Below, piece after piece: positions 3,364 to 64,000 of a stretch of DNA of 64,000 bases. The notes under the pieces were generated by a model. That model was not told the DNA's origin, did not search any database, and worked only from the letters and a program-made list of their open reading frames with translations. Every line of letters starts with the position of its first letter. Within the stretch, counting starts at the first letter, position 1. The position numbers were made by a program, and so were the translations under genes. This DNA comes from Phycisphaerae bacterium (GTDB taxonomy: Bacteria; Planctomycetota; Phycisphaerae; UBA1845): NCBI GenBank assembly GCA_963666835.2, contig CAXXGO010000006.1, positions 256,001 through 320,000 on the forward strand, given 5' to 3'.

Positions 3364-4033
3364 GAAAGCGCCGGGATAAACCGGCATGGAGTAGCGGATG
3401 AAAGAGCCGTACAGGAAAGGGTTAGCGTCCCATCCTGACCCCGAGTCATGCGCCGGGGGTCGCAAGGCCCCGGGCGAAGCGTTGACAGGGGCACAGGTGG
3501 GCCCGGCTATTGAGCTCCGAAAACGTGTACGTCTGCCGTGCCGACCCAGTCAGGTCACGGGGAAGGCCACATGAGCGGTGACGATAAGCGCGAGCCGTCG
3601 CTTGACGCCACGGAGTCGAAGACCCTGGGCACGCTTGGAAGCTCTATGCGCGAGAACCGGGAGGCCCCGAAGACTCCCTCGGCGGATAGCACCGGGGAAC
3701 GGTCGGAGAAGGGGGTTTGCCGAACGTCCGGCATGTACGTCTACGGGGAGTCGGACGATCTCATAGTACCAACGAAGCTGGCGAACAAAGCTGGGTAACC
3801 GGTGGCGGAGTCGGTGGAGGGAAGGGGATCGACCAAGGGCAACACCTTGCAGACTGCTGCGGGCCGGGCACAGCACCGGAAGCCCGGGCTCAGAACCGGG
3901 AAGCCCGCATCGATCGGGCTGGATGGTGTACGATCGACTGATCGTTATGACCCGAGGTAGGAGCCGTATGAGGTAATTCTTCACGTACGGATCTGTGCGG
4001 GGGGTGGCCCGAAAGGGCCATTCCTAGTGCGAC
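3364..4033 (+). mobile_element. ORF-less group II intron RNA (IIB / class E-like scaffold)
   Basis: Domain V GAGCCGTATGAGGTAATTCTTCACGTACGGATCT (3961-3994, AGC triad), domain VI hairpin with GAAA loop ending ...GCGAC, DIII-like GGGGAGTCGGACGATCTCATAGTACC...GGAGGGAAGGGG, and DI motifs GACCCCGAGTCATGCG, GAAGCGTTGACAGGGG, ATTGAGCTCCGAAA. EBS1 CAGGTC (3551-3556) is complementary to exon GACCTG (3358-3363). No RT ORF in DIV. Confidence 0.93.
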
Positions 4034-4083
4034 CCGCAACGGCGCGTGGCGCAGCGCTTTGTAGTGAGTTGTGTTCCACAGCG

Positions 4084-62741: not shown

Positions 62742-62770
62742 TTGACACCCTTTTGGGAAAGACGTATGTT
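62742..62770 (+). promoter_or_regulatory. Putative sigma70 promoter TTGACA-17-TATGTT
   Basis: TTGACA 62742-62747 and TATGTT 62765-62770, upstream of the sigma gene ATG at 62844. Confidence 0.6.
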
Positions 62771-62843
62771 CGGTTTTTGTTCTGGTCCACCTGGGGTGGG
62801 TGGACCGCATCTCGTTGTCATTCAACAGGGGGGGGGCAAACCA

Positions 62844-63851
62844 ATGAAAGAGGCATCCGACGCGCTTATACCGCTGACATCCGAGCAGCGCGAGCTGGTC
62901 CAGCGGAACTTAGGGCTCGTGGGTGTGCATTTGCGACGGTATGTGGGGAACCTCGCGGTATCGCGAAACACCCGCGAGTGGGACGATCTGTTTCAGGAGG
63001 GCTGCTTGGGCTTAATGCGCGCGGCCGTCGCCTTCCGAAAAGAGCGGGGTATTCCGTTTGCGGCCTTTGCGTTGCCGCGCATTCGTAACGCTGTCAGTCA
63101 CGCACTGCACTCCGAGTTCAGTATGATAAAGACCCCGTTCCGTTCGACCGGCGGCAAGGGGACGAACGATGCTCCGCAAGAATGCCGATCACGCCGACCC
63201 GCAGTCTGCAGTCTGTCCAACGGGTTGGAGACGACAATCGTGAACAAGCGGACGGACGGCGTAGATCCCTCGCCGGGTGAGACTATCGGGCAACGTCTAC
63301 GCACCAAGTACGAGCGGGCCGTGCGGCGCGTGGGGTCGCTCATGGCCGGGCAACCGTCCCCGCGCGGCGATCGAGATCGGTTGGTGCGACTGCTGGTTGA
63401 GGAGAGGTTCTTCGTTCCTCGCGAAGAGGACAAGCGGGCGCTGCGCCGAATTGCCCGCGATACGCAGTCTTCCTTCGCCCGCGTGGCCCAATGCGAGAAG
63501 CAACTCGCCGGCGCCGTGCGTGCCGTGCTCGAAGCCGACCCGGAGTTCAACACGCTACGGCAACTGGCTCGCCAAGACCCGCGAGGCCGGGACACACCAA
63601 TCGACCGTGAGGTCGAGGAGTCGCTCCGGGGTGCCGGTACTGACGAGTATATCCACCGATACCGCCGGGCTGATCCCCTGCATCGGGGCCGGATGCTCTA
63701 TTCGGTGCTACGCCAGTCCCCGGACGACGCCGAACAGCTTCTGCGCAGCAGGTTCGCGCGCCTGACCGATCGAACTCGCGAACACCTGCTCGATGACAGA
63801 CCGGGCCCGACCTGCCCTCGAAGGGAATCAGCGGTTTCGCACCCGGGGTAA
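62844..63851 (+). CDS. Sigma-70 family factor (FliA/WhiG-like region 2) with C-terminal extension
   Basis: NLGLV...DDLFQEGCLGLMRA...F..ERG..F..FA..RI, region-4-like LRRIARDTQSSFARVAQCEKQ, then about 100 further residues. Confidence 0.8.
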   Translation: MKEASDALIPLTSEQRELVQRNLGLVGVHLRRYVGNLAVSRNTREWDDLFQEGCLGLMRAAVAFRKERGIPFAAFALPRIRNAVSHALHSEFSMIKTPFRSTGGKGTNDAPQECRSRRPAVCSLSNGLETTIVNKRTDGVDPSPGETIGQRLRTKYERAVRRVGSLMAGQPSPRGDRDRLVRLLVEERFFVPREEDKRALRRIARDTQSSFARVAQCEKQLAGAVRAVLEADPEFNTLRQLARQDPRGRDTPIDREVEESLRGAGTDEYIHRYRRADPLHRGRMLYSVLRQSPDDAEQLLRSRFARLTDRTREHLLDDRPGPTCPRRESAVSHPG

Positions 63852-63898: not shown

Positions 63899-63965
63899 CC
63901 CCATCCATTCCGGCGGGTACCGGCCCGGAACAGCCGGGGCCAAGTCCCCGCCGGAATGGGTGGGG
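63899..63965. repeat. 19-bp stem-loop after the sigma gene
   Basis: CCCCATCCATTCCGGCGGG (63899-63917) pairs with CCCGCCGGAATGGGTGGGG (63947-63965), with one G-T pair. Confidence 0.85.
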
Positions 63966-63966
63966 G

Positions 63967-64000
63967 GAAAGCGCCGGTAAGCCGGTGAGGAGTAGTGGAT
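63967..64000 (+). mobile_element. Probable 5' end of a second group II intron (cut by the window edge)
   Basis: GAAAGCG-CCGG-taag-CCGG-tga-GGAGTAGTGGAT versus intron 1 GAAAGCG-CCGG-gataaa-CCGG-cat-GGAGTAGCGGAT. Confidence 0.75.

Follow-up and report, generated by a model that had tools for sequence, protein, structure and literature searches.

The window, that is, the whole stretch of 64,000 nt that was analysed (G000:C6:256001-320000), carries one ORF-less group II intron near its start (intron 1) and breaks off 34 nt into another (intron 2), which follows a REP-like palindrome. These final 34 nt (63967-64000) read GAAAGCGCCGGTAAGCCGGTGAGGAGTAGTGGAT and resemble the start of intron 1 at 3364, which reads GAAAGCGCCGGGATAAACCGGCATGGAGTAGCGGAT; the first-pass annotation had recognised an intron start like that of intron 1 here, and the two sequences do agree. 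A loose motif search gave 6 matches against 3.0 expected, neither intron start among them, and the 34 nt alone are weak evidence; the 1.9-kb continuation past the window edge settles the identity of the element. The features are as follows, with L001 coordinates past the edge.

3364..4033, plus strand: intron 1, ORF-less, 670 nt, starting GAAAGCG and lying in REP-A
63899..63917, plus strand: 5' arm of the target element, a REP-like palindrome
63947..63965, plus strand: 3' arm of the palindrome, holding IBS2 and most of IBS1
63954..63959, plus strand: IBS2 GAATGG, scoring 4.0-4.5 of 6 against EBS2 at 12/12 filled sites
63961..63966, plus strand: IBS1 TGGGGG, the 5' exon end, the same in 12/12 filled sites
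63967..63973, plus strand: non-canonical intron start GAAAGCG, in which three bases stand between G and GCG, so that it exceeds GUGCG by two bases
63967..64000, plus strand: first 34 nt of intron 2, the remainder lying past the window edge
L001:1967-3893 (G000:C6:319967-321893), plus strand: intron 2 as a whole, 1,927 nt, a complete group II intron
L001:2002-2226: RF02005 domain I core
L001:2124-2129 (intron nt 158-163): probable EBS2 CCUUUU, pairing imperfectly with IBS2
L001:2151-2156 (intron nt 185-190): EBS1 CCCCCA, 6/6 pairs with IBS1
L001:2219: EBS3, a U
L001:2331-3836: RT/maturase ORF, 501 aa, ending inside domain V
L001:3821-3854: domain V, with AGC triad, 2-nt bulge and 5-nt loop
L001:3855-3893: domain VI, with a bulged branch A at L001:3886

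Just 5' of intron 2, on the same strand (62742-63851, plus), lies a gene for a sigma-70 region 2 protein, whose transcript could carry the intron.

Much of this anatomy had been forecast from the 34 nt. The predicted domain I motifs are there: GACCCCGAGTCAT is present, followed by AC instead of GCG, and RF02005 (D1-D4) matches over the full model with 169.4 bits. An EBS1 complementary to TGGGGG, such as CCCCCA, had been expected, and CCCCCA is what stands there; an RT ORF was likewise found, with domains V and VI about 1.9 kb downstream, where about 2 kb had been foreseen for an RT-bearing form. The ORF occupies domain IV, and its product carries YADD and matches TIGR04416 with 370.7 bits (cut-off 300), while no En family match was found in the 501 residues. 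Domains V and VI were read from the sequence and its fold, the Rfam matches listed including no domain V. The alpha-prime element sits in a terminal loop, which, like the 5-nt domain V loop, is a trait common to classes E and F (PMC3753933), and at the 3' end the bulged A stands before a 7-nt spacer whose last bases are AC (an AY end).

We placed the intron 2 RT in a protein tree of 21 rows, where it joined two class E references at 57-58% identity (clade support 85/97); the class D, F and G references, at 31-34% identity, fell elsewhere. The two class E references are close kin, and the class labels are those of the supplements to PMC8919778 and PMC3552965. To the class F introns Ni.ha.I1 and B.th.I3 the RT is 31-33% identical, in a separate clade of a comparison made without Ge.ur.I1, Pe.th.I2 and So.us.I2. 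By these sequence comparisons intron 2 is a class E intron, as judged on two closely related references, which agrees with the class E-like kind of intron suggested from the window. The two references are the introns labelled class E on pBCJ2315 of B. cenocepacia and pPV15 of P. vervacti (PMC8919778). Common to intron 2 and class E, Cl.be.I2 included (PMC3753933), are the absence of En, the 5-nt domain V loop, the terminal alpha-prime, the 7-nt branch spacer and recognition through EBS1/2/3. The two class E references start with GTGCG, whereas intron 2 starts with GAAAGCG and homes into a palindromic repeat.

Twelve full copies of intron 2 are present in the genome, all after GGGTGGGGG and all before an A. 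Eleven, the window's included, are 1,927 nt long with 0-3 substitutions relative to the window copy; the twelfth is 1,928 nt long and carries a frame break. Two 3' fragments (C7:69129 and C7:94518) have flanks unlike the target repeat. On C6, all 10 intron copies lie on the plus strand, against 19 plus and 27 minus among the empty repeats (p = 0.0008). Beyond 1 Mb, C6 is G-rich on the plus strand, so that this strand would be the lagging-strand template there, a type of target that the En-less RmInt1 is known to use (PMC8643678); the GC skew is flat in the first 1 Mb, home of 8/10 copies, which makes the lagging-template reading weak for those. In two public DNA runs, which may be the source samples, intron 2 collapsed to one contig, with a depth of 58-63 against 3-6 in the flanks. 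An RNA run (X1, with 0.09 of words present) gave one identical 244-nt contig at a depth of 2.2 and no L001:1966-3894 joint, and is evidence neither for nor against splicing or expression of intron 2. Intron 2 is complete and, from the 12 precise copies, appears to be recently active and mobile.

The 5' end of intron 2 departs from the usual form. In nearly all introns, IBS1 lies immediately before GUGYG (PMC4024640); directly after the IBS1 of intron 2 stands GAAAGCG instead. Two pairs of filled and empty twins (C1:23317 with C1:22629, and C6:556014 with C6:558853) have the common junction TGGGGG|ACGGA, so that the inserted DNA starts with GAAAGCG. The empty repeat copies give the same boundary, and the collapsed contigs from both DNA runs start exactly at the first G. 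GUGYG is a consensus and no absolute rule, and GAAAGCG marks intron 2 as a variant; this breach of the rule, absent from the first-pass annotation, is the main oddity of the element.

The hairpin before intron 2 had been described as 19 bp long and as something other than REP-A, and both descriptions hold: the stem has 18 Watson-Crick pairs and one T.G, beats 40/40 shuffles, and belongs to a second palindromic family. Its DNA fold has a predicted energy of -31.1 kcal/mol, and an unpaired G at 63966 is the sole base between stem and intron. The genome holds 54 empty matching copies of the palindrome and 12 filled ones, an intergenic location having been checked for the window's copy. Two subtypes of the repeat are filled (10 and 2 copies), with loops of 3 nt to about 50 nt and a constant linear motif. 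IBS1 is paired in the predicted stem, over 4-5 of its 6 nt, at 11/12 filled sites, and IBS2 at 12/12; at one filled site IBS1 is predicted to be unpaired. At equal EBS scores, 12/52 repeat sites are filled against 0/34 non-repeat sites (p = 0.003), so EBS pairing alone is insufficient, and extra specificity must come from further bases or from the hairpin. None of the 14 repeat copies in which EBS2 matches less well is filled (p = 0.056), nor is any of those with TGGGGA in place of TGGGGG among the rows compared. The repeat pattern was not found in the 40 relatives searched. For a Y1 transposase of the RAYT kind that might go with the repeat, PF01797 gave 9 matches in the genome, counted whatever their flanks. 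After intron 2, at L001:about 3895-4040, lies the second palindrome subtype in inverse orientation, holding an unused minus-strand site; the target is thus half of a repeat doublet.

To see how far such starts extend, we scored 205 loci, among the matches listed, to find the offset that lets EBS1 pair with DNA upstream. Among these, 72/82 distinct introns with enough flank reach 5 of 6 EBS1 pairs; shuffling EBS1 among introns in 200 trials gave 8.2 on average and 18 at most; 10/82 score below 5, and 2/82 have other offsets. The leaders, among at least 70 introns, are 5 nt (n=27), 6 nt (n=11) or 7 nt (n=32) long, frequencies that are biased and do not stand for class E as a whole, the survey pattern having been cut from this clade and the offset picked to maximise pairing. 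Again among the matches listed, 5-nt leaders are GTGCG or GAGCG, 6-nt leaders include GATGCG and GTAGCG, and 26/32 of the 7-nt leaders are GAAAGCG. All 70/70 open with G, EBS1 pairing puts the splice site before G-N(1-3)-GCG, and 43/70 of these listed introns are 1-2 nt longer than with a canonical start. The 32 listed seven-base introns carry 22 different EBS1 sequences, and IBS1-EBS1 covaries over 6 bp across relatives; EBS2 covariation is weak. Six-base leaders occur in multi-copy introns, with 5 copies in G401 and 3 in G110, at differing flanks.

Introns with extended leaders look functional from their sequences. Among the matches listed, the branch A is present in 18/18 extended rows with domain VI visible, EBS3 and the first exon base form a Watson-Crick pair in 20/23 (one wobble, 2 mismatches), YADD is found in 11/14 proteins, and every extended row has a d3 hairpin of 15 nt. 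No compensating change in domain I was found to track the longer leader, the top columns being lineage markers, and at most of these columns intron 2 does not show the state of the extended group. An EBS2a-IBS2a pairing was considered and rejected, as no column covaries with position -7; none is expected, because this pairing is restricted to IIB1 and IIB2 (PMC8643678). On a protein tree of 33 rows, leader length requires 7 changes, and for each state a minimum of 3 is forced by starred branches; a single target site is occupied by introns with the leaders GAGGCG, GATGCG and GAAAGCG. A phylum-wide pattern search matched 15/401 genomes, and was dropped since those matches listed for genomes other than G000 resemble chance hits.

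Intron 1 provides the nearest comparison. Its EBS1 CAGGTC faces IBS1 GACCTG and its EBS3 G faces C as the first 3' base, and it is 69.7% identical to intron 2 in domain I. In a weakly supported RNA tree of 300 nt, the nearest rows to intron 2 have 5- and 6-base leaders, and intron 1 belongs to another clade, in which GAAAGCG predominates. Intron 1 thus seems to belong to a different sub-lineage, and with the two introns on different branches GAAAGCG may have been reached independently or by exchange. Four intron-1-type starts occur in the assembly, all ORF-less or truncated, and in that assembly (92% complete) no RT could be assigned to the intron 1 branch. The RT of intron 2 had been put forward as a possible helper for intron 1. 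Truncated or internally deleted copies of this type lie at G000:C1:352856, C6:234346 and C7:29180, each at GAGACCTG in REP-A.

It had been proposed that such introns form a family, each aimed at a different palindrome through a re-programmed EBS loop. For introns 1 and 2 this stands, both lying in palindromic repeats through different loops (CAGGTC and CCCCCA); as a statement about the family it is supported in part. At rebuilt sites, among the matches listed, an inverted repeat beating 40/40 shuffles was found for 4/12 seven-base, 0/6 six-base and 0/9 five-base leaders, the intron 1 row having been left out and 6/33 other rows having flanks that were too short. Palindrome targeting fits part of one lineage rather than the whole family.

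Observed for intron 2 are its anatomy and boundaries, 12 precise near-identical insertions, EBS1/EBS3 and weaker EBS2 complementarity to the target, a one-strand bias and the G-AAA-GCG end. We read it, with a probability of about 85%, as a group II intron of class E (IIB-like) that is retromobile, lacks an endonuclease, is guided by its EBS elements into a repeat and keeps G1 with looped-out bases behind it. At the 5' end of group II introns, where G1, epsilon and lambda have their roles, G1 is the reactive base and GCG makes tertiary contacts. In intron 2, EBS1-IBS1 alone would set the 5' splice site, G1 would stay the reactive first base, the downstream GCG would keep its usual contacts, and up to two extra bases between them would be looped out. 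The RNA, spliced with the assistance of the RT, would pair through EBS1/2/3 with TGGGGG|A and reverse splice into DNA, mostly on the lagging-strand template, and copying would be primed by the nascent strand at the fork. The repeat would offer plentiful landing sites between genes and be recognised chiefly by its sequence, with bases outside EBS1-3, probably read by the RT, raising specificity.

Two other accounts of the 5' end and its target were weighed against this. The true start might be AAGCG or later, the extra bases being target duplication, exon or assembly error; the G run at the junction could blur the boundary, and one empty repeat does have six G. The empty twin alleles carry five, however, the short-read contigs open at the same base, and across 32 introns among the matches listed the last exon base before a seven-base leader is variously A, C, G or T. 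Moreover, the same reading yields a canonical GTGCG for another intron in this genome, and GTGCG is also what the two class E references begin with. A later start is therefore largely refuted and highly improbable, and duplication of the target or a shifted boundary was rejected on the empty repeats and twin alleles. The other account concerns the hairpin, for which an analogy with class C introns, which insert downstream of stem-loops, had been drawn. Recognition of this type as the main mechanism was rejected, since IBS1 and IBS2 sit inside the stem, which hides the target rather than presenting it; with a 6-nt EBS1, EBS2 and EBS3 all present, targeting of intron 2 is IIB-type base pairing and not class C hairpin reading. 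The hairpin could still aid targeting in a class C manner, for example by fork pausing or RT binding: 12/12 insertions are in palindromic repeats against 0/34 equally scored non-repeat sites, and strong inverted repeats mark 4/12 seven-base-leader targets against 0/15 others. A formed hairpin would nevertheless compete with EBS pairing, loops of 3 and of about 50 nt are both used, one filled site has an unpaired IBS1, and shared distal bases account equally well for the repeat preference, so we regard such help as distinctly unlikely.

A further alternative keeps the same element and target but makes the intron linear, with hydrolysis as the first step and host repair closing the 5' junction; the longer 5' end would then block branching, and imprecise repair would explain the changing leader length. 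In vitro and without protein, three class E introns spliced solely by hydrolysis (PMC3753933), for which reason a bulged A is no proof of branching, and introns with shifted 5' sites also splice by hydrolysis (PMC4024640). The 7 changes of leader length on the protein tree, and the one site with three leaders, would fit imprecise repair as well. Against it, all 12/12 5' junctions of intron 2 are identical and precise, and domain VI with its bulged A is intact in 18/18 visible cases among the matches listed, unlike in the published shifted introns. On balance a linear intermediate seems rather unlikely, and lariat formation is probably the route taken in vivo, because the branch A has been kept throughout.

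Among known systems, the closest parallels to the displaced 5' end are the Clostridium tetani intron C.te.I1 and the mitochondrial rRNA introns from Li et al. 2011 (PMC4024640, PMC4424553, the latter listing the same 5'-shifted cases), in which, as in intron 2, extra bases separate IBS1 from GCG and EBS1-IBS1 sets the splice site. In those introns a spacer precedes a retained GUGYG, and EBS2, branch A and RT are gone, whereas in intron 2 the insert comes after G1, all three are retained, the d3 hairpin is unchanged in size and 12 precise copies exist. RmInt1 (class D) is like intron 2 in being En-less, EBS1/2/3-guided and spread with a strand bias through a multicopy target. That target is reportedly an insertion sequence present in many copies; the target of intron 2 is a short palindrome, and the class differs (33.5% RT identity to the pSymA class D intron). 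RmInt1 invades single-stranded DNA at forks (PMC8643678). Class C (IIC) introns after terminators or attC hairpins likewise occur in many copies at the foot of a stem-loop; their IBS1 spans 3-4 bp, they lack an EBS2, and their hairpin stands upstream of IBS1 (PMC4024640, PMC7923331); intron 2 has a 6-bp IBS1 and an EBS2, and both sites are in the stem.

The notable part is a 5' leader of variable length in a mobile lineage, REP homing alone being modest. In the literature searched, neither a mobile intron that starts in this way nor homing to REP elements was found; Simon 2008, Toro 2002 and Li 2011 may bear on this. McNeil and Zimmerly suggested that mobile introns may need IBS1 beside GUGYG for reverse splicing (PMC4024640), to which intron 2, with 12 fresh copies, is a natural counter-example. 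We tentatively propose that a class E branch has uncoupled the first intron base from GCG, so that leaders of G, 1-3 free bases and GCG interconvert repeatedly while lariat formation and precise retrohoming continue, and that one sub-lineage became specialised on palindromes through EBS1, repeatedly spawning ORF-less riders. If true, a widespread branch with uncoupled leaders would overturn the supposed need for IBS1 next to GUGYG in mobile introns. Related introns start with 5, 6 or 7 bases, in part at one and the same target, and this series makes testable what distance between G1 and epsilon/lambda still allows branching and reverse splicing, and the displacement of G1 bears on the spliceosomal 5' splice site too. 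Boundary predictors based on GUGYG may misplace or miss such intron ends. Boundaries of classes E and F are the weakest in PMC4028801, and in Sedimentisphaera salicampi NZ_CP021023 the 5' ends of three class E introns are given as 'not detected' (PMC8919778 Table 3); these three are candidates for extended leaders.

Several observations from the survey stand by themselves. Nine rows (L091, L100, L102, L127, L132, L142, L150, L168 and L169) have the EBS1 CTTGAT or TTTGAT and one common site, which looks like the last codons of a conserved protein-coding gene and is occupied with three different leaders. ORF-less forms of 540-743 nt make up 9/23 extended rows with both ends (L091, L092, L099, L107, L108, L113, L124, L134 and L149) against 1/10 of canonical length, among the matches listed and with short contigs favouring their detection; ORF-less group II introns have been called rare in bacteria (PMC4424553). 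In L131, GAAAGC directly follows the intron's 3' end, which suggests a tandem insertion through a U.G EBS3 pair, of a kind described for another intron (PMC12584367).

Besides the intron 2 family, the assembly (92% complete) encodes two more RTs, one of group II type and one distant. A second full group II intron (G000:C6:about 1065005-1067035) has a canonical GTGCG start and a matching EBS1; its RT is 45% identical to the RT of intron 2 and branches next to class E. The distant RT lies in a frame of 833 residues (G000:C6:about 1808300-1810800) with a glycine-rich motif in its front part, which we take to resemble Cas6, and the frame is possibly an RT-Cas fusion.
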